From positions 1 to 52,700 of the forward strand of contig JABWCP010000039.1 in NCBI GenBank assembly GCA_013360215.1: 52,700 nt of DNA. Reading direction: 5' to 3'. The position numbers and the translations under genes are program-made. The notes under the pieces were generated by a model. That model was not told where the DNA came from. It made no database searches and saw only the letters and a program-made list of their open reading frames with translations. This document shows, piece after piece, positions 3,666 to 52,700 of the stretch. The stretch is from a bacterium (GTDB lineage Bacteria > CLD3 > SB21). Every line of letters begins with the position of its first letter. The stretch's first letter is position 1.

Positions 3666-3720
3666 GATATATTCCTTTCGATTTTTTAAGTGCGCAAATA
3701 TAATTTTTTTTAATTCAGGG

Positions 3721-4641
3721 TCAATTGTGATCCTCAACTATCGTTTGAACGGCTGTACGTGACCGCGAACGATACACATTAACAAAATACACACCGATCA
3801 GTATCAGTACGCAGCCGATCATCGCACGTACAGTCAACGCTTCCCCGCGGACAAGCCAGCCGAGTATCACGGCGACTAAGGGTGTGGCGACAGGTATGAT
3901 CGCCGCTTCCACGACGGAAACTTTTTTGATCACCCACATATACACAACAAAGGCGACCGCCGAGCCGAATACGCCGAGGTAAAAAATGCTCGCGACGGAT
4001 TGCGGTGTCCAGTGCAAACGCGACGTATCTTCGGTAAGTAACCCAGTGCCTAAAAGACAAACGGCGCAGAGAATCATTTGTACCGTTACGTTGACGACGG
4101 GATGAATGCCGTCCGCATGTTTTTTGGCATATACGCTGATGACGGCACCGCACAGTGCCGCTAAAATGATGGAAACATCGCCCATCCACGACGTACCGAT
4201 ATGGTGAATATCACGCAGAAAAACAACCGTGACCCCGGCAAAACTAACGACCGTACCGAAAATTTTGACTCCTGTGATTTCATGTTCCGCTAGCCACAGG
4301 TATCCGAGTATGATGACAAAAAACGGCATGGTTGCAAAAATAATCGCACCGATACCCGAATCAATATACTGTTCACCCCAGAATACAAAGGCATAATCCA
4401 GCATTTGAAAAAAACCCAGAAACAGCATGACACGCCACGAATGCCGGTCGCGGGGAAACGGAATACGCTGAAAGAACATCAAAGCAATCAATAATACCGA
4501 CGCGATAACAAAACGAATTCCGGCAAATAAAAACGGCGGTAAATCTTCAAGACCGATTTTGATGGCAAGCCAGGTCGAACCCCAGATCAAAGTACAGATC
4601 GCAATCGCGATGTGCGGCCAGTAGTGTTTGTGTGACGACAA
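3721..4641 (-). CDS. EamA/DMT family transporter
   Basis: [20 protein letters not shown]; about 10 TM segments in two repeats. Confidence 0.9.
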
Positions 4642-6261: not shown

Positions 6262-7795
6262 ACATCACCGAAGCCAGTGCGGAGTCGGACTCGACCCACG
6301 GCGCACTGCCCATTTTTTTCTTAATAATATCTCCGAGTATCGCGATACCTTCATGAATATGCTCCGTCGTTTGCGAAACAAAACCCAAACGCATACCGCC
6401 GCCGGCATCCGGGCGCACGGAAAAAAAACGCTTGGGCGTAAAAAGAACACGCCGCTGACGGGCTTCCATCAGCACATCATACTCATCCATACCTTCCGGC
6501 AGATCCGCCCACTCAAAAAGACCGCCGGCAGGAACATGGAAATGCACTTCCTCCGGAAAGTACTGACGGGACGCGGTGATCATCGCATCGCGCCGCTCTT
6601 TGACAACTTTCATTTTTCTTTTCAGATAGCGATCGAAATGGCCGGCTTCACAAAACTCCAATATTGCGCCCTGAATCAAATAATTGTTTTGCCAGTCCGT
6701 GAGGCGTTTGGCGTAATTCAGTTTATTTTGAAACGCGCGATTGGAAGTAATCACCCAACCCAGGCGAATGCCGTGAAATAATATTTTTGAAAAACTGCCA
6801 AGCGCGATGACAATACCTTCGTCATCTAATGCCGCAATCGGCACGATCTCCTCGCCCTCCATGCGCAGTTCGTTGGCGTATTGATCTTCGACGATCGGTA
6901 TTTCGTAATGGTACGCCAGTTCCAATAGATGTTTACGTCGTTCCAGAGGCATCGTTCGGCCCGTTGGATTTTGGAATGTCGGTATCGTATATATCAACTT
7001 TACTTTTTGCCGCTCCAGTATCGTTTCAAGAATATCCATGCGCATGCCCTGATCGTCCATGGGAATGCCGATGATATTAGCGCCGAGCGATTTGAATATG
7101 CGCCGCGCACCGTGATAGGTTACTTCTTCCGTGATCACCGTATCGCCGGGATTGATCAGAATCCGTGCGATCAGATCTATGCCTTGCTGAATGCCGCTGA
7201 CCATCGTGATATCCGAACTCTGTACGGTAAGACCGCGTCGTACTAGAAACTTCGGCAAATATTCGACGAACGGCCGAAACCCCTGCGTATCACCCATCTC
7301 CAGCAGATCCACTCCGTATTTTTGAATCGCCCGATAGGAACAATTTTGAAAATCAACGAGCGGGAAAAGATGTTTATCCGGCACAACCGAAGAAAATGCA
7401 ATCATGTCCTGCGGTTTGCTGCATGTGCGCACGATCGTATCAATCGCCTGCATCGAAGGGTCTTCGGGATTGATCCAGTGCTCCGCATACAAACCGTCGA
7501 ATGAAAAATTACCGGATTTGTTTTGGGCGGCGACCACTCCTTTGGCAGCAACGTGGGCATGTTTACTGACAAAAGTACCGCGGCCTACTTCGGAGTACAC
7601 AAAACCTTTAACCTCAAGTTCCTGATACGCCTGGACGACCGTATTGCGGTGCACATGCAACTGTAAAGCCAGATCACGCGTAGCGGGTAATTTTTCGTCG
7701 GCCTTGAGAATCCCGACGCGGATCAATTCCGTTATACGCCGTTCAATCTGCGTATAGAGCGGAACATCGCTTTCTTTGTTGAGTTCAAACACCAT
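6260..7795 (-). CDS. MocR/GabR (PdxR-like) transcriptional regulator, GntR wHTH plus PLP aminotransferase domain
   Basis: PLYTQI..LPATRDLA..VHRNTVVQAYQELEVKG..GRGTFV; YTIPTFQNPTG, EDQY, GSFSKILFHGIRLGW. Confidence 0.93.
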   Translation of the reverse strand: MVFELNKESDVPLYTQIERRITELIRVGILKADEKLPATRDLALQLHVHRNTVVQAYQELEVKGFVYSEVGRGTFVSKHAHVAAKGVVAAQNKSGNFSFDGLYAEHWINPEDPSMQAIDTIVRTCSKPQDMIAFSSVVPDKHLFPLVDFQNCSYRAIQKYGVDLLEMGDTQGFRPFVEYLPKFLVRRGLTVQSSDITMVSGIQQGIDLIARILINPGDTVITEEVTYHGARRIFKSLGANIIGIPMDDQGMRMDILETILERQKVKLIYTIPTFQNPTGRTMPLERRKHLLELAYHYEIPIVEDQYANELRMEGEEIVPIAALDDEGIVIALGSFSKILFHGIRLGWVITSNRAFQNKLNYAKRLTDWQNNYLIQGAILEFCEAGHFDRYLKRKMKVVKERRDAMITASRQYFPEEVHFHVPAGGLFEWADLPEGMDEYDVLMEARQRRVLFTPKRFFSVRPDAGGGMRLGFVSQTTEHIHEGIAILGDIIKKKMGSAPWVESDSALASVM

Positions 7796-7804
7796 ACATC
7801 ACCT

Positions 7805-8146
7805 TTACGGAGCTTTGGGTTGATGAATTTTTTTCTTCCACACATAACCGATCCAGAAATAGAGTACACAACACACGGAAAAAACGATCGGGCTTACATA
7901 AAAATCAAGAAACGTCAATTCCGCCTTATCGCTTACGGTAAACATGTACATCGTGCCGACCGTACCGATCAAAAAACATACTAAACAACTATAGAGGTAG
8001 CCGAACGAACGATGTTCGCGCCATCGCTGCTGATTCTGCCGGCTTTGCATAACGACAAAAATCATCACAAGGATCGCCAACTTAAAAGCGATGACCATCA
8101 TACCGATAAAAACGGCCCACGCAATGAGGCCTTCGAGTGGTAACAT
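7805..8146 (-). CDS. Small membrane protein (about 3 TM)
   Basis: Three hydrophobic stretches; fits the gene spacing of the cluster. Confidence 0.6.
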   Translation of the reverse strand: MLPLEGLIAWAVFIGMMVIAFKLAILVMIFVVMQSRQNQQRWREHRSFGYLYSCLVCFLIGTVGTMYMFTVSDKAELTFLDFYVSPIVFSVCCVLYFWIGYVWKKKIHQPKAP

Positions 8147-8208
8147 AGAATTATAAATTTTTAGTGAATATTGGTTGTATTAACATAACTAAATCTCATC
8201 GCATGCGT

Positions 8209-8646
8209 TCAGTTTACCAACGGAAGATGTTCGAATTCATCGGGAATTAATTTCGGATTCCAACAAATTTCCCAGCTATACCCATCCGGATCGGAAAAAA
8301 AAGCATGGCGCCCGCCCCATACGGCAGGTTGTGCTTCTTTGAGTATTTTTACCTTTTCGTTTTTTAGTTTATTGACCCACGCATCAACATCGTTTTCATT
8401 TTGAACATTATGCGATAAAAGGATTCCCGTAGACGAAGGCGATACCGTTTCAAACGACGCGCCGGTTAAGGCGTTCAGCTGTTGAATGGGATATATCCCC
8501 AGTACCATACCGCCATTGTCAAAAAGTGTAATCACCGGTGTTTTTTTCAATATTTTGAATCCCAATACATCCGAATAAAAATTCGCCGCACGTTGCATAT
8601 CCGACACACCGAGTGTTATAAAATGGATTCGCATCGGTTTCACCAT
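8209..8646 (-). CDS. VOC/glyoxalase family protein
   Basis: ITLGVSDMQRAANFY; WGGRHAFFSDPDGYSWE. Confidence 0.9.
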   Translation of the reverse strand: MVKPMRIHFITLGVSDMQRAANFYSDVLGFKILKKTPVITLFDNGGMVLGIYPIQQLNALTGASFETVSPSSTGILLSHNVQNENDVDAWVNKLKNEKVKILKEAQPAVWGGRHAFFSDPDGYSWEICWNPKLIPDEFEHLPLVN

Positions 8647-9419
8647 TGGATCGTACCTTGCAGATAATCGGCCGCATAACCACCGATATCAACCCGATCA
8701 CCGCGCAATTTACAAAAAATTTCACCGCCGCGTTTTGAAACCTGAAGTGCATACAATTCATCTTTTCCCAGCCGCTCCGCCCAGTACGGGATCAGCGAAC
8801 AATGCGCCGAACCGGTGACAGGGTCTTCATTGATACCGACGCTCGGTGCGAAAAATCGTGACACAAAATCCGTCGTATCGCCCCGCGCCGTGACGATAAC
8901 TTTTTCGCCTAATGATTTTAGCATTGTGAAATCCGGCGACAATGCACGCACCGTCGCTTCGGAGTCAAATACGCAAAAGTAATCGCGTGCTTTAAGAATT
9001 ACGTCCGGATTGGCGCCAAGACCTTCAACTAATGCCCGCGGCACCGTGCAGGGTAAGGGTTTGCGTGCGGGAAAATCCATAAGCAACTTTCCGTCAGGTA
9101 AACGACGTATGGTCAATTTTCCGCTTTGCGTGTGAAAATGTATTTCCGATCGTTCAAAGTGCAGGTGTTCAAAAAGCACATGGGCCGTCGCCAGTGTGGC
9201 ATGACCGCAAAGATCAATTTCCACTTCCGGGGTAAACCACCGCAATGCAAAATCGTCACCTTGCGGAATAAAAAACGCCGTTTCCGAAAGATTGTTTTCA
9301 GCGGCAATACCCCTCATTATTTCATCTTCCGGCCAGACTTGCATCGGGCAAACCGCTGCCGGATTGCCGGAAAAAACTTTACGCGTAAACGCATCCACCT
9401 GATACATTGTGATTTTCAT
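8640..9419 (-). CDS. PhzF-family isomerase
   Basis: VDAFT..GNPAAV, NLSETAF, EIDLCGHATLA, EDPVTGSAH. Confidence 0.93.
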   Translation of the reverse strand: MKITMYQVDAFTRKVFSGNPAAVCPMQVWPEDEIMRGIAAENNLSETAFFIPQGDDFALRWFTPEVEIDLCGHATLATAHVLFEHLHFERSEIHFHTQSGKLTIRRLPDGKLLMDFPARKPLPCTVPRALVEGLGANPDVILKARDYFCVFDSEATVRALSPDFTMLKSLGEKVIVTARGDTTDFVSRFFAPSVGINEDPVTGSAHCSLIPYWAERLGKDELYALQVSKRGGEIFCKLRGDRVDIGGYAADYLQGTIQW

Positions 9420-9421
9420 TT

Positions 9422-10225
9422 TTATGATCCCGTATAAGTGATCGTATCGCCGATACGCAGTTTACCGTTTTTTTGCACCGGAATAAGATTCATCCCGAAC
9501 ATAATTTTACCCTCCGCGCTCCGGCGATATGTCGCCAGTGTTTTCAAAGGTTCCGCACCACTTTCGGTTGTCTCCGGATCCACCGTCGTCAGTACACAAC
9601 GGGAACACCGTTTGACGCCGCGAAACTCTACTGCACCGGTACGCATGATTTGCCATGTATCTTCTTCATGCGCCGCGCAACCGCTTACGACGATATTTGG
9701 GCGAAATCGTGTCATCGTCACCGGCGAAGCCAGTTTGGAATTGAGTAATTCTAACGAGGCTTCCGAAATCACCAGCGCTGGATACGCATCGGCAAAACTC
9801 ACGTGATCATCGGCAACGGCATACTTGCGATCCACCGGTCGTAAAAACTGTGGCTGCATACGAACTAACCGGTAGCGCGCACCGAGAAACTGGCTCAGCC
9901 ATTCGGCCGGTGCGCCGCCGCAATCCCATGCTTCGCACGTATCTTCCCATACCGTGACGCGGACGATGCTGTGCGGCATAAGATGGATCGGTGTTGCAAA
10001 AAGCTCCATCCCCGGCGCCCGCATATACAAAATACCGCTTTCGATCGAGGGTTCGATCCATAACAATGGATGCACCTCACGCGCCGTCACAAAACGACCG
10101 GATGTATCCACGATCATAAAACGCCGATCATCGGTAAATCCGTACGCATCCAACGTAACTGACGGGACGGAAAATCCTTTGCAGGATTTGATCGGATAAA
10201 TGCGAAGATCGCTGATTTGTACCAT
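9422..10225 (-). CDS. MOSC_N plus MOSC protein (YcbX/mARC-like)
   Basis: IYPIKSCKG, DRRFMIVD, FADAYP, RFRPNIVV, KRCSRC; start placed at MVQIS. Confidence 0.92.
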   Translation of the reverse strand: MVQISDLRIYPIKSCKGFSVPSVTLDAYGFTDDRRFMIVDTSGRFVTAREVHPLLWIEPSIESGILYMRAPGMELFATPIHLMPHSIVRVTVWEDTCEAWDCGGAPAEWLSQFLGARYRLVRMQPQFLRPVDRKYAVADDHVSFADAYPALVISEASLELLNSKLASPVTMTRFRPNIVVSGCAAHEEDTWQIMRTGAVEFRGVKRCSRCVLTTVDPETTESGAEPLKTLATYRRSAEGKIMFGMNLIPVQKNGKLRIGDTITYTGS

Positions 10226-40042: not shown

Positions 40043-40120
40043 GGGCAATTAGCTCAGTTGGTTCAGAGCGTTCGCTTCACACGCGAAAGGTCACTGGTTC
40101 GAATCCAGTATTGCCCACCA
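40043..40120 (+). tRNA. tRNA-Val (anticodon CAC)
   Basis: Acceptor stem GGGCAAT/ATTGCCC, anticodon stem TTCGC/GCGAA with loop TT-CAC-AC, T arm ACTGG-TTCGAAT-CCAGT, encoded CCA. Confidence 0.96.
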
Positions 40121-40182
40121 ATTCTTAAACATATTTCTATATATTTCTTTAGACGCGAAAGGCCATCCCGCCTGAAGCGGGA

Positions 40183-40207
40183 TATTGCCCACCAATTCTT
40201 AAACATA
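40183..40207 (+). repeat. 25-bp direct repeat of the tRNA 3' end and flank (att-like)
   Basis: TATTGCCCACCAATTCTTAAACATA is identical at 40109-40133 and 40183-40207. Confidence 0.9.
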
Positions 40208-40440
40208 AGCGGGATATTGCCAATTTATCTCATGAATATTTCTATCAGCGCTTTAATATATATACCCTATTCGATATCATTGAAGCAACAGTTGTTCATG
40301 GTTCCATTGTGAGCTATAATCGCCAGCATAATCTATAGATTCCATTTATGATACGAGTATCCTTTGGTAAGCATTTTTCTTGATTATTCTCTTTTCATCT
40401 ACGAAATTGCTTATAATCCTTTCTCTTTGGGGTTCGTATT

Positions 40441-43197
40441 TTGCCTAAATCCATTTCCGAAGCTGAAACCCGTTATTCCCTGATCGATCCCGATCTTAAA
40501 AAAGCCGGATGGAATCTGTCCGACCGGTCGCAGGTGGGGTTTGAAATTCCGGTCGACCGATACGACGGTAAGCTGGAAGAGGGGATCACCGACTATTGCC
40601 TCTACCACGCCAACGGCGAAGTTCTGGCCGTCGTGGAAGCCAAGCGAACCAGCCGCGATGCCCGCGTAGGGCAGAAGCAGGTTGAAGATTACGTCACTAA
40701 GATCGCTAAAACCCAATCCTTCCGACCGTTTGCCTTTATGGCCAATGGCACGGATATCTTCTTCTGGGATACCGAGGAATCAGCACCGCGCCACGTTGCC
40801 GGGTTCTTTTCACGTGAGAATCTCGAACGCCTGCTCTGGATCAAACAAAACCGCATTCCGCTAAGCACGATTCAGATAAAACAATCCATCGTTGACCGCG
40901 CGTATCAGGCGGAAGCAATTCGCCGCATCTCCGAGACCATCGAATTAAAGAAAAAACGTAAAGCCCTGCTTGTCATGGCTACGGGAACGGGCAAAACGCG
41001 CACAACGATGGCCCTGATCGACGTATTTCTGCAGGCCCGCGCCGCTCAGAGGGTTCTGTTCCTCGCTGACCGTGATGCCTTGGTGCAACAGGCCATGACG
41101 GACGGACTCAAACGCCATCTGCCCAACGAAGCCCGCGGACGTATACGAACTTACGACCTCGACAAAACCAAAAGGGTCTTCGTATCCACGCTGCAGACTT
41201 TGGAGATCTGTTTCAAGGAATTCACACCCGGTGATTTCGATCTGATCATTACCGACGAATGCCATCGCTCGATATACAATAAATTCACCGACGTATTGGC
41301 CTATTTCGATGCCGTTCAGATAGGCCTTACGGCTACTCCGGCGCAATTCATCGACCGCGATACATTCAAATTCTTCGATTGCGAAAATAACGCCCCGACC
41401 TTCCTGTATTCCTACGAGGATGCCGTCAAAGAAGAATATCTGGTAGACTACAACGTCTATTCCGCACAGACCAAATTCCAGCGCAAAGGCATCAAAGGCG
41501 TGGACCTGAGCGAGGAGGAACAAAACGCCCTGCGCGAGCGCGGCATTGATCCGGAGGACATCAATTACGAAGGCACCGACCTGGAACGCAAAGTGACCAA
41601 CCGCGACACCCTGCGGAAACAGATCGAGGAATTCATGGAAGTCTGTCACAAAGATTCCACCGGCCAGCTTCCGGGCAAGTCTATCGTCTTTGCCATCACG
41701 CAGGATCACGCCATGCGCATTGCGGAGGAATTCAACAAAATGTATCCCGAACATCAGGGGCGGGTGGTGCAGGTGATCACCAGCAAGATGGAACGCACGC
41801 GCGAACTGATCGATGCCTTCAAGAAAAACGACATGCCGCGCATAGCGATCTCCGTGGACATGCTCGACACGGGCATCGACGTGCCGGAGGTCGTGAATCT
41901 GGCCTTCATGAAGCCGGTCAATTCGCAGATCAAATTCTGGCAGATGATCGGACGCGGCACGCGCCCGCACGAAGCCTGTCAAAACTATGCCTGGCTGCCC
42001 AATAGCCGCAAAGAGAGTTTCCTCATCGTGGATTTCTGGGAGAATTTCGAACACTTCGAGATGATGCCCAAAGACGACAAAGGCCCTTCGCAGGTGCCCG
42101 TGCTCGTCACGATATTCCATACTCGCCTTCAGAAACTTCAGTTTCTTCTGGGCGACCAGTCTTCCGCCGATCTCAAACGCATCGTGCAGGACGTACGCGC
42201 GGACATTGCCAGGATTCCAACCGATTCTTTTACCGTAAAGAGATCCATGAGCGACCTGAGGCAGGTCACGGACGATGATTTCTGGGCTTATCTGACGGAA
42301 GACAAACTCGAACTGCTCCGTCTCAGGATCGCGCCCTTGCTCCGGTTCGTCACCGGAGTCAATCCCAAAGAAGCCTTTTTCATCAGCAAGATGGAACGTG
42401 CGGAACTGTTTCTTCTGCAGAAAAAAGACTTATCCGCGCTCATGGAATCCATTCGTGAAGACGTAGCACGTCTGCCGTCATCACTGCCGCAGGTAAAAGC
42501 GGTCGAAGAACACCGCCAAAATATATTAGCCAATAAATTCTGGACCGAACTCACGCTTGAACGTCTTGACACAGCCAAAAAAGCCCTCGCCCCGGTGATG
42601 AAACTGGCCGAAGACATCAAAACCGATCCCATCGAACTCGGCCTCGACGACATCATCGATTCCCGCCGGTGGATCATTCTGCGCGACAAGACCGGAAAGC
42701 AAAAGATCATGATCGAGGAATACAAAAAGCAGGTCGAGGAGAAGATCCTTGAACTGGCCGAAAAACATCCGACGATCAAAAAGCTCAAAGCCGGTGAAAC
42801 CATCACGGCAGGCGATCTGGAAGACTTAGACGATACACTTGAAAAAGAACTGATCCATCTCGGCCTTGACGAAGAAAATATTCTCAAAGCTTTCGGCGTG
42901 CGCGTAGGGAATCTCGTGGATTTTCTCAAACATATCCTGCACCTGGAGTCGCTTCCGACCTACGCATCCATCGTGCAAAGGTCATTCGATGCCTTTATTC
43001 TGGAACATAATTACAACGCCGATCAGTCGCGTTTTCTTCGTGTCGTGCAAAGCGTATTTCTGCAAAGACGCAAACTGGAACTGGCCGATCTGTATGAGGA
43101 ACCGTTTACGAATCTTGGAATGAATGCGGTGGAGAAGTTATTTGGGAAAGAGGAAGTGGATGAATTGATTATGTTAACAAGAAGATTAGTTGCTTGA
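40441..43197 (+). CDS. hsdR: Type I restriction enzyme R subunit (EcoAI/EcoEI-like)
   Basis: SEAETR, DY..VVEAKR nuclease motif, MATGTGKT, DECHRS, GLTATP, DMLDTGID, QMIGRGTR; TTG start. Confidence 0.93.
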   Translation: MPKSISEAETRYSLIDPDLKKAGWNLSDRSQVGFEIPVDRYDGKLEEGITDYCLYHANGEVLAVVEAKRTSRDARVGQKQVEDYVTKIAKTQSFRPFAFMANGTDIFFWDTEESAPRHVAGFFSRENLERLLWIKQNRIPLSTIQIKQSIVDRAYQAEAIRRISETIELKKKRKALLVMATGTGKTRTTMALIDVFLQARAAQRVLFLADRDALVQQAMTDGLKRHLPNEARGRIRTYDLDKTKRVFVSTLQTLEICFKEFTPGDFDLIITDECHRSIYNKFTDVLAYFDAVQIGLTATPAQFIDRDTFKFFDCENNAPTFLYSYEDAVKEEYLVDYNVYSAQTKFQRKGIKGVDLSEEEQNALRERGIDPEDINYEGTDLERKVTNRDTLRKQIEEFMEVCHKDSTGQLPGKSIVFAITQDHAMRIAEEFNKMYPEHQGRVVQVITSKMERTRELIDAFKKNDMPRIAISVDMLDTGIDVPEVVNLAFMKPVNSQIKFWQMIGRGTRPHEACQNYAWLPNSRKESFLIVDFWENFEHFEMMPKDDKGPSQVPVLVTIFHTRLQKLQFLLGDQSSADLKRIVQDVRADIARIPTDSFTVKRSMSDLRQVTDDDFWAYLTEDKLELLRLRIAPLLRFVTGVNPKEAFFISKMERAELFLLQKKDLSALMESIREDVARLPSSLPQVKAVEEHRQNILANKFWTELTLERLDTAKKALAPVMKLAEDIKTDPIELGLDDIIDSRRWIILRDKTGKQKIMIEEYKKQVEEKILELAEKHPTIKKLKAGETITAGDLEDLDDTLEKELIHLGLDEENILKAFGVRVGNLVDFLKHILHLESLPTYASIVQRSFDAFILEHNYNADQSRFLRVVQSVFLQRRKLELADLYEEPFTNLGMNAVEKLFGKEEVDELIMLTRRLVA

Positions 43198-43283
43198 AGA
43201 TGGATGTAAAGAACTTTTTCGTGATATATAAATCATTGTTCTAATCTATTTGGAAAGACATTTGCAAAATAATGGGAGGTAAC

Positions 43284-46200
43284 ATGCGTTTTTTTGTATT
43301 CATATCCACAACTTGTCATAAAGATGCTCAAGAAAAGGGCTTTGCGAAGGAAATTGAGAAGCTGAGAATAAAGGTTGAAGCCGATCAATCAGTAGACTCA
43401 TGGGAAGATTTTTTGCCAAGTCCTATCATACAAAAGAAATTAGGGGGTTATAGGTTAGTCGCAGAAAAGCGAATCGTTGATGACTCCACAATGGCGATAG
43501 TATTTCTTACTATTTTGAAAAAGGGAACTCCGAAATATGAGAAATTTCATGGTGCAGAAGTCGAGTATTGTGAAAACCTTAAACCATCAAATTTACAAGT
43601 TACCGATGAAATCAGGGCTCGCATTAGAGAAGAAAATTCTGTACCAATTGTTCCTGAGCCGAATGACATAGAATACAGTTATCTTTTTGATCAGGGCAAT
43701 AGCCTGGATTTTGACGATGGCATTGTGTTCGAAAGTCATGAATGGGTCCAACGTATCTCCAAGGGTGAATACCAACAATATCTAACAGATTTCTACAATA
43801 TTGCTAGTGGCATATTTGGGGATGCGACAGACACATTAAAGATCAGCTCTTCAACTAGTGCACAGATCTTATTCCGTTACTTTCCTGAATCAAAAATATT
43901 GTTTCTGATTTCACCGATTACAAAAGCCAATCAATCAGAAATTCAGAAGATTCAGGAACAATTTGCGTCTATTTTAATGAATTCAACGGTGTCCCAAGAC
44001 GAATTATTGAGACAAAGCGGAAGATCTTATCCTGCATTAGTACTCGCTGATGATTTTGAAGTGTGGAGTGCCATTGAGTCTAACAAAGAGGGCAATTTGG
44101 CCCTTTCTCCAGAGGAATCAGTTATTCTAGAGTCCGTTTTCTTGTCAAAGAGACCCAAAGAAAAGAGATTTCCCCTGTTCATTAATGGAAGACCGGGTAG
44201 CGGTAAGTCTACGGTCTTACATTATATGTTTGCAGAGTTTTTTTTTCGACATATTCAGAAGTCGAAAGATCAGAGGCTAAAGCGGCCGCCCCTGTATCTC
44301 ACATATAATCCGAGACTACTGGAAAACGCCCGAGCCGCTGTGGTCAAAATAGTGACATCAAACCACAAATTTGCCGCAGAAAAAAAAGTATTTACGGAGC
44401 AGGAATTGGAGGAAACCCTCGATCAGGCATTTGAAGTTTTTCATGATTTTCTTAAAAAATCTCTGCCATCAGAAAAGTCAAACTTATTCCGTAAAGATAA
44501 AAGGATTGATTTTGGAGAGTTTAAGAAAAGATGGTCAGACCATATGAGGCGTGATTTCCGGAATGAACTAAAAAAAATCAACGCCGAATTAGCATGGCAT
44601 GTTATTAGAACATACATCAAAGGCATGCGTGACGATGAGGATAACTATTTTGACAAGGATTCCTATTTTGATCTTCCGGAAAAGAGAAAAACAGTCAGTC
44701 AGAAGACATTTGACTTAATTTATGATGAATGTTGGGAAGGTTGGTATTATCCATTATGCAATAAATCGCAATACTGGGATGATCAGGATCTGACGCGCAA
44801 GGTTCTTGATGAGGTTGGGGCAGATTATTTCCAATATCCAGCCGTTTTTTGTGATGAGGCACAAGATTTTACTCGGATTGAATTGGAACTTATTTTCAGG
44901 ATGAATCTTTTTTCACGACGACGGACATTACCGGATCAGATAAAAAATATCGCATTTTCATTTGCAGGTGACCCATTCCAGACTCTCAACCCAACAGGAT
45001 TCAATTGGGAATCAGTTTCATCAGCTTTTTATGAAAGAATAGTTCAACATTTGGATCCTTCTGGATCAGGGCGGCTTCAATTCAATCCTCAAGAACTGAA
45101 GAACAGTTACCGTTCGACACGTCACATCGTAGGAGTGTGCAATCTCATACTCTTAGTTCGCGGCATTCTCTTTAATATACCTAAGCTGCATCCACAAGTA
45201 TCTTGGTTTGAAAGGGATGCTTCAGTTCCGGAATTTTATGATATACAAAGTCAGCATTGTGTTGATCGACTAAGAGAGGAGGAGAGCATTACGGTTATCT
45301 TACCCTGTCAAGAAGATGAAGAATTAGACTACATCGAGAAAGACAGTATTTTAAAGGAATTGTCGGTTTCCGGAGACCGTCCAAGAACCTTCTTAAGTCC
45401 AATGGCTGCCAAAGGTCAAGAATTCCCTCGTGTTGTTATCTATAAGTTCGGAGATGATTGTGTTCGCAACTACCCAACTCTGTTAGACCCACTCTCTTCC
45501 GTAAAGCCTCAGGAACAGGACTTGGATAGGCTATTGCCCATGCAATATTTTATGAATCGTCTATATGTGGCAGCCAGCAGGGCTCAGAAGCGATTGATCA
45601 TTGTTGATACAGAAGATGGCATTAGCAAATTCTGGAATAATGCAATGATGACTAACCCCGATGCTCTTATTGATAAGTATAGAACCATGTTTGATCCGAA
45701 TAATCCATGGGGGACAAAAAATATCTGTCTCTGTCAGCCGGGCGTCCAGACCACAAAAGATAGAAAATGGTCCGAAGATCGGGAAAACCCTGAAGAGCTC
45801 GCAGAAGTAGCGAAGAACTTAAAGGAGGACGGAAGAAGAACCAAGAGTTCATATAAGTTGCGTCTAGCATCAGCAAATTTTGAGCGCGCTTCTTTACCTG
45901 ATGAAGCTAAAAGATGTATGGCATTGTGTTATGAAATAGAAAATAAGTATACTGAAGCAGCTAAATTGTATCAAGAACAATCCTTACACACAGAAGCTCT
46001 TGGGTGCTATTGGCAGGGGGGCTTGTTCAGTAATGTTGTAAAAAATGTTGCGTTTTCGGAGTATCCAGAGTACCGAGCGTCAGATTTTATGCTGGGAGTG
46101 CAAAGTGGATCAGACAGTATACAGTTCCTTGATTTTATTTCGAATGAAATGCGCGGCCCCAGGAAAAATAATATAATTGACAATCCGACATGGATTAACG

Positions 46201-47399
46201 TTTTTGAGAAACTGATAGCAGCGCTGGCGAAAATGGACAACACAACTGATGGTAACGATGCATATAGAAAAGTTATGGCAATTAGTCAAGAAGGTCTCCC
46301 GACGTCACAATACTTGGAGCTTGGAAAACTCGCATGCAAAGCAGGGCTTTATGAGGAAGCATTGAAACAGTTCAATAAAATCACGCCCAAACCGGTTGAT
46401 GCACCCGAATACGTTTTTGTAAAATCACAACTTTCGCCATTTCCGGAAAGTATTGAATGGCTGCACAAACAAAAAAATGGTAGTGAAATAATAACCCAAT
46501 GGAAAACGCATTCACTTTTGCTTGAGGAAAAATATGAAACAATAGTCTACAATGCTATTATTGAAAAGCAGGCGTTTGACCTCCTTCCTCAATTCATAGA
46601 GTTTCATCCTAAGTATGACTATTTTTTTAAAGCGCTTAGTGTTTATGAAAAGGAACAAGATGATATATCGTACGAGTTAATGGCGCATCGGCTGATTTGT
46701 CATTACGTAGATGAAAACCGATGGACAGAAGTGTTGAAGTTCTTGAACAGTAATATCAAGATAAAAAAGTTGGATTTAGGTATAAAGAATCGATTTGTTT
46801 TTGAATTTGCAAAATCATCACCGAAACTCAATGAAGAAAACGAAAAAGCCATCGCAGATTTTATTGAGAAGTGGTATATCAAACACCCAGAATCAATTTT
46901 TAGTATAAAGATAGTTGGGACGTCAGTTGAGAAATCAAATCGTATGATTCTTTCTCTTGAATTTTATGAAAATATTTGGAAGCACAAGAAATATGGATCA
47001 GAAGCAGATCTGGAATTTGCAAGAAGACGTTGGTTGCGGTGTAAAAATAGGCAAATAGAACGTGGCAAATCCACATCTCGTGGAATTGAGGACTTTGAAA
47101 AATACTCTGCGGAGTGGGGCTATTCTATTGATGACATCCCGCAATATGAAGATCTTGATGGTATATCTTTTTCAGACGAGTATAAAGTTCCAGTGCAGCA
47201 GCAAAAAGCACGAGCAAGTACGCGGGTCGAGATTAGAAAGGATACGATTTCTGAAGAGCAGCGACTGGCTATCAAGGATCTTTATGAAATTGGTTATTCA
47301 GTAGAAAAAATACGACATATATTTCCGACGGTGTCCAATAACACGATCGAAATGATAATTGACAGTAACATGACTGAAGCGCAGAACAAACACAAGTAA
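43284..47399 (+). CDS. Large SF1 (UvrD-like) helicase/ATPase with RelE-like N-terminus, TPR-like region and possible C-terminal HTH
   Basis: LSPEE, GRPGSGKST, DEAQD, AGDPFQTL, SYRS, AKGQEF, RLYVAASRA; GGAGGT RBS before ATG 43284. Confidence 0.8.
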   Translation: MRFFVFISTTCHKDAQEKGFAKEIEKLRIKVEADQSVDSWEDFLPSPIIQKKLGGYRLVAEKRIVDDSTMAIVFLTILKKGTPKYEKFHGAEVEYCENLKPSNLQVTDEIRARIREENSVPIVPEPNDIEYSYLFDQGNSLDFDDGIVFESHEWVQRISKGEYQQYLTDFYNIASGIFGDATDTLKISSSTSAQILFRYFPESKILFLISPITKANQSEIQKIQEQFASILMNSTVSQDELLRQSGRSYPALVLADDFEVWSAIESNKEGNLALSPEESVILESVFLSKRPKEKRFPLFINGRPGSGKSTVLHYMFAEFFFRHIQKSKDQRLKRPPLYLTYNPRLLENARAAVVKIVTSNHKFAAEKKVFTEQELEETLDQAFEVFHDFLKKSLPSEKSNLFRKDKRIDFGEFKKRWSDHMRRDFRNELKKINAELAWHVIRTYIKGMRDDEDNYFDKDSYFDLPEKRKTVSQKTFDLIYDECWEGWYYPLCNKSQYWDDQDLTRKVLDEVGADYFQYPAVFCDEAQDFTRIELELIFRMNLFSRRRTLPDQIKNIAFSFAGDPFQTLNPTGFNWESVSSAFYERIVQHLDPSGSGRLQFNPQELKNSYRSTRHIVGVCNLILLVRGILFNIPKLHPQVSWFERDASVPEFYDIQSQHCVDRLREEESITVILPCQEDEELDYIEKDSILKELSVSGDRPRTFLSPMAAKGQEFPRVVIYKFGDDCVRNYPTLLDPLSSVKPQEQDLDRLLPMQYFMNRLYVAASRAQKRLIIVDTEDGISKFWNNAMMTNPDALIDKYRTMFDPNNPWGTKNICLCQPGVQTTKDRKWSEDRENPEELAEVAKNLKEDGRRTKSSYKLRLASANFERASLPDEAKRCMALCYEIENKYTEAAKLYQEQSLHTEALGCYWQGGLFSNVVKNVAFSEYPEYRASDFMLGVQSGSDSIQFLDFISNEMRGPRKNNIIDNPTWINVFEKLIAALAKMDNTTDGNDAYRKVMAISQEGLPTSQYLELGKLACKAGLYEEALKQFNKITPKPVDAPEYVFVKSQLSPFPESIEWLHKQKNGSEIITQWKTHSLLLEEKYETIVYNAIIEKQAFDLLPQFIEFHPKYDYFFKALSVYEKEQDDISYELMAHRLICHYVDENRWTEVLKFLNSNIKIKKLDLGIKNRFVFEFAKSSPKLNEENEKAIADFIEKWYIKHPESIFSIKIVGTSVEKSNRMILSLEFYENIWKHKKYGSEADLEFARRRWLRCKNRQIERGKSTSRGIEDFEKYSAEWGYSIDDIPQYEDLDGISFSDEYKVPVQQQKARASTRVEIRKDTISEEQRLAIKDLYEIGYSVEKIRHIFPTVSNNTIEMIIDSNMTEAQNKHK

Positions 47400-47402
47400 A
47401 TC

Positions 47403-48899
47403 ATGCTCACAAACCCTGACTTAAAATCAAAAATCGACTCCCTCTGGGACAAATTCTGGTCCGGTGGAATAGCCAATCCGATTACAGCCATTGAACAAAT
47501 GTCCTATCTGATCTTTCTGAAAAGACTGGAAGACATGGACAATGCCCGCGCCGCCGCGGCTAAGCGGAGAAATGAAACGTACCGCTCGGTATTTCACGGA
47601 AATAAGGAATGCAGATGGTCGCACTGGAGCCAATTGCCCGGCGATCAAATGCTCAAGCATGTGCGCGATAAGGTGTTCGATTTCCTGCGGGAAGTGGGCG
47701 GGGAGACGAGCACATTCACACAGCACATGGAAGACGCCGTGTTTGTCATTCCGAAAGCGTCGCTCTTGCAGGAAGCGGTCAAGATCATCGACGATATGCA
47801 CATTTCGGAACAAAACGTGGACGTGCAGGGCGATCTGTATGAGTATTTGTTGAGCCAGCTTACCACGTCCGGCAAGAACGGCCAATTCCGCACTCCGCGG
47901 CATATCATTCGTATGATCACGAAACTCGTCGATCCGAAGATCGGCCAGCGTATTTGCGATCCGGCTTGCGGCACGGGCGGGTTTCTTGTCGCCGCCTATG
48001 AACAAATTCTCGAAGAAAACACGACCCCTGACCTGATCGAACGCGACGAAGACGGCAAGGCGCATCACCTGATCGGCGATAAGATCGCGGATAAGAAACT
48101 GATGCAATTCCTGAAAAGCCGCGCGCTCACCGGATACGATTTCGATTCCACGATGGTGCGTATCGGCGCGATGAACCTGATGCTGCACGGCATTGACAAT
48201 CCGCGCTGCGTTTACACCGATACCATGTCGAAGGCATTTACCGAAAAATCGGAATACGACGTTATTTTAGCCAATCCGCCATTCAAAGGCTCGATCGACA
48301 AGAGCGACATCAATGAGCGTTTTACCACCAGCACGACCAAGACGGAACTGCTTTTCATCGAATTGATCTACGGCCTGCTGAAAAACGGCGGCAAGGCGGG
48401 CGTGATCGTGCCGGACGGCGTGTTATTCGGGACGAGCAATGCGCATGTGGATACCCGCAAGATCATCGTGGATAAGTGCAAGCTCGAAGGGGTGATCTCT
48501 ATGCCTTCGGGCGTATTCAAACCGTATGCGGGCGTTTCCACAGCGGTGCTGATATTCCAGAAGGGCGGCACGACGAAGAACGTCTGGTTTTACGATATGG
48601 AAGCCGACGGATTTTCACTCGACGATAAACGTCAGCGTGTTGAGGCCAATGATATTCCGGACATTCTGAAGAGTTGGGGATTGAGAAATTCGGAATCACC
48701 TATCGACAATCAAAAATTCTTCAAAGTGACCGTCTCCGATATCCGAGCAAATAAATACGATCTTTCCATTTCACGATACAAAGAGATCGTGCACACGGAA
48801 ATCGAATACGAAAAGCCGGATGTGATCATGAATAAGATCGTCGAATTGGAAAAAGGGATCGCGATGGATGTGGAAGAGATTAGGGAGATGATGAAGTGA
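47403..48899 (+). CDS. hsdM: Type I R-M N6-adenine methyltransferase
   Basis: LWDKFWSGG, GQFRTPRHI, DPACGTGGF, NPPF, VPDGVLF. Confidence 0.96.
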   Translation: MLTNPDLKSKIDSLWDKFWSGGIANPITAIEQMSYLIFLKRLEDMDNARAAAAKRRNETYRSVFHGNKECRWSHWSQLPGDQMLKHVRDKVFDFLREVGGETSTFTQHMEDAVFVIPKASLLQEAVKIIDDMHISEQNVDVQGDLYEYLLSQLTTSGKNGQFRTPRHIIRMITKLVDPKIGQRICDPACGTGGFLVAAYEQILEENTTPDLIERDEDGKAHHLIGDKIADKKLMQFLKSRALTGYDFDSTMVRIGAMNLMLHGIDNPRCVYTDTMSKAFTEKSEYDVILANPPFKGSIDKSDINERFTTSTTKTELLFIELIYGLLKNGGKAGVIVPDGVLFGTSNAHVDTRKIIVDKCKLEGVISMPSGVFKPYAGVSTAVLIFQKGGTTKNVWFYDMEADGFSLDDKRQRVEANDIPDILKSWGLRNSESPIDNQKFFKVTVSDIRANKYDLSISRYKEIVHTEIEYEKPDVIMNKIVELEKGIAMDVEEIREMMK

Positions 48900-50113
48900 C
48901 TACTGTTCAATACTATCCCAAAGTCAATTTACGCGATCATGCTTTGTTAATAAGGGGTATTACGTTCAAGCCGCATCAAAAAACTGATATTCCTTCTGAT
49001 GATGCAATAGTGTGCTTACGTACTGCCAATGTCCAATCTAATGTTGATTGGAGAAGTCTTATCTATATTCCAAAGGCACTAGTAAAAAGGACTGATAAGT
49101 TATTGCGTGAAAAAGACATTCTAATATCAACAGCCAATAGCAATAATTTGGTTGGCAAGTGTTGCTTGATTCGCTCACTTCAAGTCCCGGCAACACTTGG
49201 GGGATTCATTTCCGTTATTCGCGCAAATGGTGAGAGCCTTGACGCGTCGTATCTTTATCATTATTTGAATTCTGACGAAATTCAAGCGCTTCTCAGAAGT
49301 ATTTCCAGGCAAACTACAAATATTTCGAACCTACCGACAGACCAATTGTTGAATGTTCAAATCCCTCTCCCTCCTCTTCCTATCCAGAAGCGCATCGCCG
49401 TGATACTTGAGAAAGCCGACGCCGCGCGCGAAAAGCGTCGCCAAACCATCGAGCTCACAGAAAAATTTCTCCAGTCCGCCTTCCTCGAAATGTTCGGCGA
49501 TCCGGTGACAAATCCGAAGGGGTGGGAAAAGGAGACCATGGATGAGCTGTGTGATAGAATTACAGATGGTACGCACGACACTCCCAAACGCCTAACACAA
49601 GGAGTGAAGTTCATAACTGGAAAGAATATTCGCCCACATAGGATTGACTTCAGCAATCTGGACTTTGTTTCGCAAGATGTTCATGAGGAAATCTATAGGA
49701 GGTGTAATCCTATATTCGGAGATGTTCTTTACACAAATATTGGAGTCAATCTTGGAACCGCCGTCATGAACAACCTGCATGAAGAATTCAGCATGAAGAA
49801 TGTTGCGTTGCTCAAACATAATCGTCAGAAACTGGAATCTCGATTTCTTGAATACATTCTCAATGATCAAAGAATGAAAAAGGCTCTTCTCAAGCGCTTT
49901 TCAATTGGTGGAGCTCAATCATTTTTAAGCTTAGGTAACATTAAAATGATTGAAATACCAGTTCCCCCTCTCTCCTTACAGCAAAAATTCGCCGCGATGG
50001 TCGAGAAAGTCGAAGCCATGCGCTTCAGGCAGCGCGCGTCGGAGCAGGAATTGGAAAATTTGTTTCACAGTTTGATGCAGCAGGCGTTTAAGGGGGAGTT
50101 GGTACTTGCTTGA
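48896..50113 (+). CDS. hsdS: Type I R-M specificity subunit
   Basis: Two TRDs separated by IPLPPLPIQKRI..FLEMFGDPVTNPKGW; distal PVPPLSLQQKF..AFKGEL; overlaps the hsdM stop. Confidence 0.95.
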   Translation: MTTVQYYPKVNLRDHALLIRGITFKPHQKTDIPSDDAIVCLRTANVQSNVDWRSLIYIPKALVKRTDKLLREKDILISTANSNNLVGKCCLIRSLQVPATLGGFISVIRANGESLDASYLYHYLNSDEIQALLRSISRQTTNISNLPTDQLLNVQIPLPPLPIQKRIAVILEKADAAREKRRQTIELTEKFLQSAFLEMFGDPVTNPKGWEKETMDELCDRITDGTHDTPKRLTQGVKFITGKNIRPHRIDFSNLDFVSQDVHEEIYRRCNPIFGDVLYTNIGVNLGTAVMNNLHEEFSMKNVALLKHNRQKLESRFLEYILNDQRMKKALLKRFSIGGAQSFLSLGNIKMIEIPVPPLSLQQKFAAMVEKVEAMRFRQRASEQELENLFHSLMQQAFKGELVLA

Positions 50114-50185
50114 ATAGTGCAATCTGAAATGTGGGTAGTGGAAAACTTGTAACATTTTAAGTGTATAAATAGGGGAGCATTTCTT

Positions 50186-51265
50186 ATGATGAAGACATCA
50201 ATAGTCGTTCTTTGTCTCGCAATAGCATCTTGCATGCCTTCCACTGCGACTCATCAAGGCTCTTTCTTTCAGAAGAAGGCCGGAAAGAGAAAAATCGTCA
50301 TTTTCTATCATGGTATTTTTGGCGATGCTCGCACAACGTGGGGTAAGACGGATAAGGCATGGCCAATGTTAATTTCTTCTGATCCCCAGTTTGAAGATTT
50401 TGATGTTTTCGTAGTTGACTATGACTCTCCATACTTGTCCAAAACATCAAATATAGAAGAAGTCTCGGTTGCCAAGAAACAAGAATTGCAAACTAAGGGT
50501 ATTCTGCGTGACTATGATCAAGTTCATATTATTGCTCACAGCATGGGGGGAATTATTGCACAGCGAATTTGTGTGCTTTTAAGGGCAGAGACTACACCTG
50601 ACTATTCAAAAATAAAATCTATTACACTGCTTTCAACCCCTAGTCATGGAGCAACTATTGCATATTTGACATCTTGGTTAAGCTCAAATCCACAGTTGAA
50701 AGATCTCAAATCTTCTGATATGAACACTCTATTACAGGCTTATTATAATTCTTGGAAGCTACTGGCTGATAGCAGGGTGAAGTCTGGGTTACTTCAACCT
50801 AGGATTAATGTTCTCTATGAAACTAAACCAATGATTACTATCAAAATTGTCGAGAGAACATATACTCTAACGGCTTTCGATGGTTTACCAATCGCTCTGG
50901 ACAGGAATCATATTGACATGGCGAAGCCAGACGGATATGAGGATAGATTGTATGAAACGGTCCGATCTTTCATCCAAGAGGCTGTGGAACCACCAGAGGA
51001 AGAGGTGGGCATGTTCATAGTTGAGGGGATGAGCTTCGATGATGCCGTGAATGGAATATTGCGAGGTACTGGGTTCGCTCCACGTTACATTTCTTGTGAT
51101 ACAATCAAAAATAAAAAAATTGTTGCGGGTGAGTTAAAGGCTCGGTCAATTGAGAGGTTCATTGCGTTGCTTGGGCAGCGCCTTATAGGAAGTAACAGAA
51201 TTCAACTAAAAATCCAAAAAAACCAGGAGCAAAGTCTATATGACATCAGTTGCGACGAAAATTAA
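50186..51265 (+). CDS. Lipoprotein alpha/beta hydrolase (PGAP1/DUF676-like)
   Basis: Lipobox IAS-C; FYHGIFG, AHSMGG nucleophile elbow, STPSHG, NHIDMAKP. Confidence 0.8.
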   Translation: MMKTSIVVLCLAIASCMPSTATHQGSFFQKKAGKRKIVIFYHGIFGDARTTWGKTDKAWPMLISSDPQFEDFDVFVVDYDSPYLSKTSNIEEVSVAKKQELQTKGILRDYDQVHIIAHSMGGIIAQRICVLLRAETTPDYSKIKSITLLSTPSHGATIAYLTSWLSSNPQLKDLKSSDMNTLLQAYYNSWKLLADSRVKSGLLQPRINVLYETKPMITIKIVERTYTLTAFDGLPIALDRNHIDMAKPDGYEDRLYETVRSFIQEAVEPPEEEVGMFIVEGMSFDDAVNGILRGTGFAPRYISCDTIKNKKIVAGELKARSIERFIALLGQRLIGSNRIQLKIQKNQEQSLYDISCDEN

Positions 51266-51881
51266 ATTCGGATTGTACTTGCTTATTTTCCCTTCCTTTG
51301 GAATCAATTCGCAAACCAAAACTTCTTGTGGAACACAACCCTTAGAAGTTAGATGCGAAAAAAATCAGGTACCGGTTTGTAGGAGGAATTACGCAGAATG
51401 CTATACTCCCAAAGGGATTACTAAGGAACAAAAGTGTGCAGATCTTCTGAGTCATGTAACTGAAAAGGCAATCACGACAGAAAACCTGTCAGAATATTGG
51501 AAACTCATTGAGGATGGTGAGTATGGAACAGGAGACAACAAAGTCAGCTTTGTAATACCCGATGACTGGAAAACGATTGTTGGAAATTCTCAAACAACTG
51601 ATGGGAAGGCGCAGGACAAGCAACAAGACATATTAAAGAAAACGCTTGACGAGTTAGATGGCAAGATAAAGAACTTGGAAAACGACGGAAGCATACAAGC
51701 GGTTGTTTCGCAAATGAACGCGAATGACAAAACGGAGTATAACAAGAAAATCCAAGCCATGAGGGATGCAATATTGGAAGCGCGAAATAACCTTAACCAG
51801 GGGAGTGCAAAAGAAAAAATAACAAAACAACAAAAAGAACTCGAAAACTTAAAGATTTGGATCGATGGCAAACGGCCGTGA
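51240..51881 (+). CDS. Hypothetical exported protein (Cys-rich N-terminus, coiled-coil C-terminus)
   Basis: 213-aa ORF, hydrophobic N-terminus, five Cys, heptad-like tail; overlaps the upstream gene by 26 bp. Confidence 0.65.
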   Translation: MTSVATKIKFGLYLLIFPSFGINSQTKTSCGTQPLEVRCEKNQVPVCRRNYAECYTPKGITKEQKCADLLSHVTEKAITTENLSEYWKLIEDGEYGTGDNKVSFVIPDDWKTIVGNSQTTDGKAQDKQQDILKKTLDELDGKIKNLENDGSIQAVVSQMNANDKTEYNKKIQAMRDAILEARNNLNQGSAKEKITKQQKELENLKIWIDGKRP

Positions 51882-51955
51882 CAATTAGGATTGTCCGCAT
51901 TATGCAGATGTGTTTTCAAATTCTTGAAAATATCCTTATAGTACTTAATACGTTA

Positions 51956-52033
51956 CGCGCGTCGGAGCTGGAATTGGAAAATTTGTTTCAGAGTTTAATG
52001 CAGAGAGCGTTTAAGGTGAAGTTGGTGAGTTAA
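51956..52033 (+). pseudogene. Orphan hsdS 3' tail, copy 2
   Basis: Encodes RASELELENLFQSLMQRAFKVKLVS*; 63/72 nt identical to hsdS 50033-50104 by hand count. Confidence 0.9.
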
Positions 52034-52132
52034 ACCTAAAAGGTCTATTGGAATTGATTGAATTACACGTAAATGCGGGAATATGGAACAGGCAGGTCGA
52101 AACCTATAGTCAGGATAGACCTTATAGGTTTA
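52031..52132. repeat. About 100-bp element with 18-bp terminal inverted repeats (REP/MITE-like)
   Basis: TAAACCTAAAAGGTCTAT (52031-52048) and ATAGACCTTATAGGTTTA (52115-52132) are reverse complements at 17/18. Confidence 0.7.
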
Positions 52133-52137
52133 CGACT

Positions 52138-52248
52138 GTCGAGAAAGTTGAAGCCATGCGTACGAAGCAGCGCGCGTCGGAGCAGGAATTGGATTTGCTT
52201 TTTCAAGCATTAATGCAAAGAGCATTTAAAGGAGAATTGGTAAGTTGA
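52138..52248 (+). pseudogene. Orphan hsdS 3' tail, copy 3
   Basis: Encodes VEKVEAMRTKQRASEQELDLLFQALMQRAFKGELVS*; 80/105 nt identical to hsdS 50000-50104 by hand count. Confidence 0.9.
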
Positions 52249-52700
52249 CTTGCCCTGAGCGATGCGCCTTCGGCGCAGAGTAAAGAGGCATAGATTGTTT
52301 AAGGAAGACAAGCACAGCGTGCAAGATTGGGGCTTTGTGATTCACGTTCGGAGATTCAGCACTTATTGATTATGTCAGTTTACAGGATGCTCTGTAATCC
52401 TTGAGAACACAAACCCACAAACCATTGGTGGCAATATCGGAGACCACTATGAATTTTGAGCAGATTACTGAAAATTATAGACTTAGAAACCCTCATAAAA
52501 AACGAAACCCGATAGTTTGAATTGCTTCAGGGACTACCGGGAATAAGACATCATTAACATACATACATTTGAACGATAAAAGCAAATAAAAGTTTACAAT
52601 GAAATGGGAAACGGAAGCAACATCGTACCCCCCTTTGGATAGAAGGGAAAGAAGGATTGAGATTGGTGATAGAACATTGCAGGAAGTCTTGCGAGCGTAG

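Follow-up and report, generated by a model that had tools for sequence, protein, structure and literature searches.

Repeated hsdS ends around cargo genes in a type I restriction-modification operon: probable homology anchors for gene insertion

How defence genes accumulate beside restriction-modification (R-M) operons without an integrase is an open question. In integron cassette arrays, compact gene units, often defence or toxin-antitoxin genes, are stacked behind a fixed site. Other described systems work through repeated gene parts. For Rhs genes, the available portion of Jackson et al. 2009 (PMC2935791) describes an intact gene followed by variable-length fragments of its conserved part, with old ends displaced downstream and no linked integrase, and proposes homologous recombination by way of circular intermediates. 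Insertion with long target duplication is characterized in the consulted part of Furuta, Abe & Kobayashi 2010 (PMC2853133) by an insert of <20 kb, direct repeats of >30 bp, an empty site in a relative and no mobility gene. The pneumococcal tvr (SpnIV) locus has direct repeats in hsdS sequence; in the excerpt of Kwun et al. 2018 (PMC6265443), circles are excised from it, in part independently of the locus recombinase where the repeats are longer. In the lpl tandem cluster of S. aureus, the abstract of Tsuru & Kobayashi 2008 (PMC2568036) lets the exchange unit run between conserved intragenic tracts. Here we analyse a 52,700-bp stretch of bacterial DNA (the window), which is the entire contig C18 (JABWCP010000039.1) of genome G000 (GCA_013360215.1) and holds a type I operon at its far end. 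The conserved end of its hsdS gene (the tail) stands there three times in the same orientation, with two cargo genes between the first and second copies. We consider it likely, at a probability of about 0.6, that the hsdS tail is a homology anchor at which units of tail plus cargo insert by short-homology recombination of the host, with no dedicated recombinase. Homology-driven insertion as such is already known.

The intact hsdS gene (48896..50113, plus strand) encodes 405 aa with two recognition domains (PF01420 in two stretches), nearly identical to those of the empty-site allele P0008 introduced below. Its live end is tail copy 1 (50000..50113). Two orphan copies follow on the same strand: copy 2 (51956..52033) starts 81 nt before the stop register and matches copy 1 at 89% over 71 bp (E 3e-20), and copy 3 (52138..52248) matches it at 77% over 108 bp (E 8e-16). 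A genome search upheld all three positions as first read in an initial annotation, whose frames, own stops and protein endings for the copies were also correct. The perfect 27-bp core that it saw in copies 1 and 3 was confirmed at 50029..50055 and 52167..52193 (both plus strand). Around this core, copies 1 and 3 differ at 6 of 29 sites on the left and at 19 of 49 on the right (11 synonymous and 14 non-synonymous differences, with ~18% of sites synonymous). A 27-bp perfect run among 25 differences in 105 nt is expected in 0.4% of random placements. Further tails had been anticipated beyond the window; none was found on the continuing contig C54 or elsewhere in the 3.72-Mb genome, where the next-best tail match had E 0.03.

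Contigs of four of the 21 listed sequencing runs, from four studies, were compared with the window. Three of the four runs, from three studies, carry the cargo form, their contigs bridging hsdS into the cargo; one of them, X5, may be the source of the window. Contigs of X7 and X9 span copy 2, copy 3 and the downstream DNA. In the fourth run, X13, a 61,805-bp contig with a depth of 120 passes straight from 50028 to 52167, and 27 letters at the joint could belong to either side. The cargo is uncovered by this contig, which shows 0 differences over 52167-52605. The two crossover tracts are thus the left and right copies of the core, and the unit absent from the empty-site strain is 2,138 bp long (50056..52193, plus strand, GC 0.40). 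Assembly collapse is unlikely in X13, because the 27-bp repeat is shorter than the 31-letter words that we take these assemblies to have used. The joint therefore means that the 2,138-bp block was gained or lost by a crossover inside the core, which bears out the earlier expectation of a breakpoint within the tail. P0008, a protein from a contig of the X13 contig's length, is an intact HsdS of 404 aa with the left residues of copy 1 and the ending of copy 3; its recognition domains differ from those of the window HsdS by one residue. The empty-site HsdS is hence the left part of copy 1, the core and the right part of copy 3 in one intact gene, and the right part of copy 3 is therefore a working gene end.

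These contigs also bear on the trivial explanations, a misassembly or a single local duplication decaying neutrally, which the region's place near a contig end might suggest. Misassembly, named in the initial annotation as something that would overturn it, is refuted by the bridging contigs from three studies. Together with these, the match of the right part of copy 3 to a working allele, and the synonymous excess and the recurrence of the layout in distant lineages reported below, make this class of explanation very improbable.

The tails are mosaics when set against the hsdS gene of G013, a genome of another genus (locus L016). In the left 29 nt, copy 3 differs from that gene at 1 site and copy 1 at 5; in the right 49 nt, copy 1 differs at 6 sites and copy 3 at 18. 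The same lean on both sides was obtained in 6 of 6 tails from the same class. On the simplest reading there would be two parents, a divergent resident allele of the empty-site type and a consensus-like incoming tail. The left part of copy 1 is common to the empty-site strain, and its right part probably arrived with the cargo. The proposal that the tails come from distinct, once-functional alleles stands, as copy 3 is the working end in a sister strain and pairs at other loci differ mainly at synonymous sites (see below).

The gap between copies 2 and 3, overlooked at first reading, is filled by a 102-bp hairpin mini-unit (52031..52132, no strand assigned). It has 18-bp inverted arms (52031-52048 and 52115-52132), each itself nearly palindromic, which form a near-perfect 18-bp stem with one mismatch (fold z -3.9). 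Within this genome the motif was found at this site only, and it is present in 4 of 84 loci scanned, the window included. In G013, hairpin arms stand directly after the live hsdS stop; next come the left-part variant of copy 3, joined there to another right part, a 469-aa gene and a third tail. The hairpin there has the same arms and another middle. From this order in G013, the left part of copy 3 probably belongs with the hairpin unit and not with the resident gene. Copy 2 together with the repeat arm behind it matches the live G013 hsdS end at 89% over 93 bp. The hairpin was ruled out as an attC site, having no extrahelical bases and the wrong placement, and Rfam gave no matches over 49900-52700.

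The layout was then sought in the best 80 of 135 hsdM relatives together with the window. For complete open reading frames (ORFs) of at least 150 aa, the first 120 nt, the last 120 nt and interior windows were searched for nearby on the same strand, and only sides with 1 kb of room were counted. An hsdS tail copy stood downstream in 12 of 50 cases (11 of 49 without our locus) and upstream in 0 of 59, and 0 of 361 windows from gene interiors were copied. Tails of hsdR recurred in 4/40 and those of hsdM in 4/63; hsdM heads were copied only upstream (4/64 vs 0/63), and tails of other ORFs recurred in 4/458. The layout is thus not specific to hsdS, the anchor named in the initial annotation, because hsdR tails, hsdM tails and hsdM heads show it too, though less often. 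Carriers include records titled Bacteroidota, Ignavibacteria, KSB1, Anaerolineales and Methanoregula. As kin are not independent, these figures are sample frequencies and not a test. Additional orphan-bearing loci lie outside the counts, namely L052 and L060 (<1 kb of room) and L070 and L102 (partial genes, near twins). A metagenome pattern scan gave 3 matches, none with an hsd gene, which were excluded from all counts.

Among the ends other than those of hsdS, L084 holds an array of three hsdM heads upstream of hsdM (7099-10052) and L044 an array of two hsdR tails (2797-4553), the gaps of both mostly holding a different gene each. An ORF in G004 that looks Y1-like by eye terminates in a copy of the hsdM tail.

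The orphans were placed on an HsdS profile built from 55 proteins, which had 22 downstream matches. Five of these were dropped from the test: L036 and L079 abut the called gene end, and L083 and L090 (three matches) carry long second hsdS pieces. All 17 separated short tails start at profile positions 345-373 of 392, after the recognition domain, and the window orphans start at 357 and 359. The initial annotation's statement that neither a silent target recognition domain nor a linked recombinase is present was borne out by these positions and by contig searches. For this reason the locus does not belong with phase-variable hsdS loci such as tvr; there, the excerpted report (PMC6265443) has recognition-domain sequences shuffled by TvrR, while this locus has neither a spare recognition domain nor a recombinase and keeps its specificity. 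By comparison with the lpl cluster (PMC2568036), where the units are parts of tandem paralogs and the abstract describes no foreign cargo, the window holds unrelated genes. The long second pieces in L083 (12653-13487) and L090 (12629-13299) do carry recognition-domain sequence directly behind hsdS, and these two loci are possibly phase-variable.

Orphan left edges lie 36 to 140 nt before the stop and never beyond the start of the conserved helix, which suggests that the joint is confined to the paired stretch or that trimming followed. Right edges are mostly at or near the stop; those of L039 and L070 end 31 and 51 nt short. The 17 gene-orphan pairs outside the window have 71 synonymous and 80 non-synonymous differences, that is, a proportion of synonymous differences (pS) of 0.23 against a non-synonymous one (pN) of 0.07 (p 3e-13). 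L102, a 97% twin of L070, was excluded from these counts and from the next. When the flanks of the longest perfect tract were taken separately in 20 pairs, now including the window, pS and pN were 0.25 and 0.11 on the left and 0.54 and 0.10 on the right. The synonymous excess on the left side means that the left part was not copied from the host gene. The longest perfect tracts themselves measure 12-94 nt, their distance from the stop ranging from 122 to 3 nt, and tail sequences vary between lineages.

Cargo between the tails is arranged compactly. Of 16 gaps in 9 arrays, 12 hold a plus-strand ORF, beginning -3 to 73 nt after the tail and ending 15 to 138 nt before the next. Elsewhere this cargo is often of defence or toxin-antitoxin type: HEC-01 (an AAA ATPase plus DUF4276), an ApeA-like gene, HEPN-nucleotidyltransferase, TIR plus PIN, GIY-YIG-RAMA, a four-helix-bundle gene, pRiA4b ORF3 and MazE, while 7 of 19 tail-flanked proteins from other loci had no match in Pfam or PADLOC. 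Related Methanomicrobiales loci have different arrays between hsdS and hsdM, and one cargo-to-tail junction (a nucleotidyltransferase gene and the left part of a tail, 451 bp, 91%) stands first behind hsdS in L070/L102 and second in L081. The suggestion that units of tail plus cargo stack is thus upheld, with up to three units of different cargo behind tails in other genomes; no whole cassette was found a second time.

In compactness and stacking, with these leads and trails and up to three units, the arrays resemble those of integrons. They differ in that no integron integrase stands beside the array and the crossover has no fixed base. No attC hairpin with extrahelical bases was seen on the cargo units, judged from folds, and no hairpin follows the two-gene unit. 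The comparison with integrons made in the initial annotation therefore does not hold, there being no linked recombinase and no common position for the tracts.

An enzyme acting in trans could also cut the tail at a specific site and move the units, either an unlinked tyrosine recombinase or a Y1 nuclease associated with repetitive extragenic palindromes (REP) and acting on the hairpins; integrons and the pneumococcal tvr locus would be the models for this. No PF00589 recombinase or Y1 transposase was found on C18 or C54; the five PF00589 genes of the genome (on C43, C4, C27, C24 and C10) and its one Y1 transposase are all on other contigs, from which they could act. The hairpin units of the window, between copies 2 and 3, and of G013 fit such an enzyme, as do Y1-, GIY-YIG- and DUF559-like genes in related hsd operons, labelled by eye. 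Such an enzyme is hard to reconcile with a crossover that is not fixed, with tail sequences that differ between lineages, with a hairpin motif confined to 4 of 84 loci and absent from the two-gene unit, or with hsdR and hsdM ends that behave likewise with unrelated sequence. We therefore regard it as improbable. Recombination by the host through short homology is favoured instead, because there is no fixed crossover and unrelated gene ends do likewise. The minimum length of perfect match for efficient use by E. coli RecA is about 27 bp.

Under recombination by the host, the incoming unit would be a circle, or a linear piece of tail, cargo and tail from a related hsd locus. It would cross over once in the tail, so that the gene receives a new end and the old end is displaced downstream. 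The insertion would leave specificity unchanged and put the cargo under transcription of the hsd operon. Two rounds may have occurred in the window: the hairpin mini-unit would have come first (right part of copy 2, hairpin, left part of copy 3) and the two-gene unit second. The reverse crossover would free the unit as a circle with one whole tail, able to insert again. Presumably only insertions at gene ends survive, because only these leave the gene whole, and hsdS would be the most frequent target because otherwise unlike alleles have its last ~140 nt in common. Promoter and terminator scans were at chance level (8 vs 5.9 and 2 vs 2.3), and expression of the cargo from the operon can thus only be inferred.

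By analogy, the hsdS tail layout appears to work like the displacement of Rhs C-termini, to which it is alike in that pieces of the conserved part stand behind an intact gene and no integrase is linked. In the portion of the Rhs report available (PMC2935791), the payload is the gene's own variable tip; here it consists of unrelated genes, and the anchor measures just 36-140 nt. The function of the gene is moreover unchanged here, the recognition domains of the filled and empty alleles differing by one residue.

The main rival would make the orphans passive. Linear DNA would have paired at the tail and had its other end joined illegitimately, or the insertion would have come with a long target duplication; the orphans would be decaying leftovers, the empty site a later deletion between repeats, and the units would not be re-used. 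Long target duplication has been described around R-M genes in the part of PMC2853133 consulted, and this locus shares its marks: a 2,138-bp insert, a 108-bp repeat, an empty site, no mobility gene and, as often there, repeats lying across a start or stop so that the target gene stays intact. According to the same part of that paper, R-M genes are mostly what inserts, and its 2010 intraspecies screen required R and M genes in the insert; here the R-M gene is the target, the insert holds a hydrolase and an orphan protein, and the units stack in arrays. A further difference is that the repeats here are different alleles, each matching the empty site on one side only. Near-copies of the target were found in L042 and L095 and not among the window tails.

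Against passive leftovers stands the left part of copy 3, which is not that of the empty-site allele and travels with the hairpin between genera. The synonymous excess in left parts and the one cargo-to-tail junction at different array places argue the same way. Random joints would often leave a remnant of the recognition domain, and none of the 17 separated short tails keeps one. We accordingly hold passive leftovers to be rather unlikely, yet they are the main rival, because no circle, no whole re-used unit and no tail on plasmids or viral contigs was found.

Insertion of re-usable units at the tail has several further observations to contend with, some of which passive leftovers would predict. 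The contigs of the four runs, which drop rare forms, contained no circle, back-joint or joint of copy 1 to copy 2; the only joint seen was that of copy 1 to copy 3. The empty site in X13 could equally be a deletion product, and the patches that separate the two strains in hsdM and in the centre of hsdS are equivocal on direction. In the central patch, the window sides with G013/G012 at 10-11 of 13 listed sites, and X13 sides with G004/G006 at 9-12 of them. No second setting of the window cargo came to light, plasmids and viral contigs yielded no tail, and the shared archaeal junction is only part (451 bp) of its unit. Orphans occur in only 1 of 5 other genomes of the class with this tail. In L042 (2 synonymous and 3 non-synonymous changes) and L095 (1 and 3), orphans are ~96% like their own gene and their changes look neutral, as a plain target duplication predicts; several orphans (L039, L040, L042) contain stops, and left edges are variable. 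Arrays show no age gradient, as similarity to the live gene does not drop with distance. Finally, a helicase-like gene between hsdR and hsdM has no duplicated gene ends around it, and cargo therefore also arrives without the tail mark.

With these points weighed, hsd gene ends are likely landing pads for extra, often defence-type, genes through ordinary recombination. At this locus a filled and an empty allele allow the crossover to be placed within 27 bp, and roughly one in five of the related hsdS genes surveyed has the tail mark behind it. If homology-anchored insertion is right, orphan hsd tails would be a cheap guide to candidate defence genes. A bolder extension, which we put forward tentatively and hold to be possible, though doubtful, is that type I R-M operons across bacteria and archaea share a recombinase-free cassette system, in which hsd ends, above all the last 140 nt of hsdS, would be re-usable attachment sites for a circulating pool of compact circles of tail plus defence gene. 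Were this so, tails would be kept because units without them cannot spread. Defence islands would have one route of expansion next to R-M genes, and an orphan tail would point to defence genes not yet recognized, the two in the window among them. Defence hotspots are described in the consulted part of a 2025 review of R-M biology (PMC12707154), in which the word 'duplication' is absent. A full-text literature search, with most subscription journals outside it and supplements excluded, gave no paper whose title or abstract opening dealt with hsdS tails flanking cargo.

Cargo gene 1 (50186..51265, plus strand) encodes a DUF676/PGAP1-type alpha/beta hydrolase of 359 aa (PGAP1, 7.8e-6) with a lipoprotein-like leader, judged by eye. 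It has a weak LmuA match (7e-9), its nearest other homologs are at 33-34%, and its predicted fold resembles ABC-three-component hydrolase effectors (TM 0.68). Cargo gene 2 (51240..51881, plus strand) encodes 213 aa of no known family, with no usable family or Atlas match that would indicate a function, and is the one member of its 90% cluster. A defence role of both genes is a guess. The two-gene module was called AT-rich at first reading; its GC is indeed lower, though only modestly so (0.40; genome 0.45, hsdS 0.43).

Upstream of hsdS, the operon includes hsdR (40441..43197, plus strand), a type I restriction subunit of 918 aa with ResIII, HSDR_N and EcoEI_R_C domains, and hsdM (47403..48899, plus strand) of 498 aa with N6_Mtase and HsdM_N domains. 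The helicase-like gene between them (43272-47399) is AT-rich (GC 0.39) and encodes 1,375 aa with weak helicase and TPR matches; PADLOC gave no match for it, and it is a candidate defence gene. A tRNA-Val (ARAGORN, anticodon cac) lies directly 5' of hsdR in the region 40043-40220. Its 3' end and flank, 25 bp (40109-40133), are repeated at 40183-40207, with more partial repeats. The repeats look like a tiny insertion or an attachment-site scar, and no integrase was found near them. In G013, the third tail is followed by a primase-like gene and by a serine-recombinase-like gene of 523 aa, which ends at a tRNA-Ala (L016, 7136-12035; protein labels by eye). The G013 hsd locus may thus ride on an integrative element.

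The window ends in the start of a multi-copy insertion sequence (IS; 52605..52700, plus strand), missed at first reading. It breaks the contig and lies outside the unit; the same sequence ends 7 other contigs, and the empty-site contig continues without it. Past the IS the locus carries on in C54, where 15 kb were checked and contained no tail, no integrase and no second tRNA-Val end. C54 opens with Abi-like and AbiEi-like genes (labels by eye), and the IS, with an apparent target repeat of ~15 bp, is inserted at the start of the Abi-like gene.

In several related loci (L018-L022, L029, L052, L060 and L095), Y1-transposase-like, GIY-YIG-like and DUF559-like genes (labels by eye) and short palindromes stand between the hsd genes or directly after them. 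The window strain and the empty-site strain differ by dense patches in hsdM (48236-48563) and in the central conserved region of hsdS (49438-49474), with the recognition domains unchanged, and run X9 holds both versions of the central hsdS patch.

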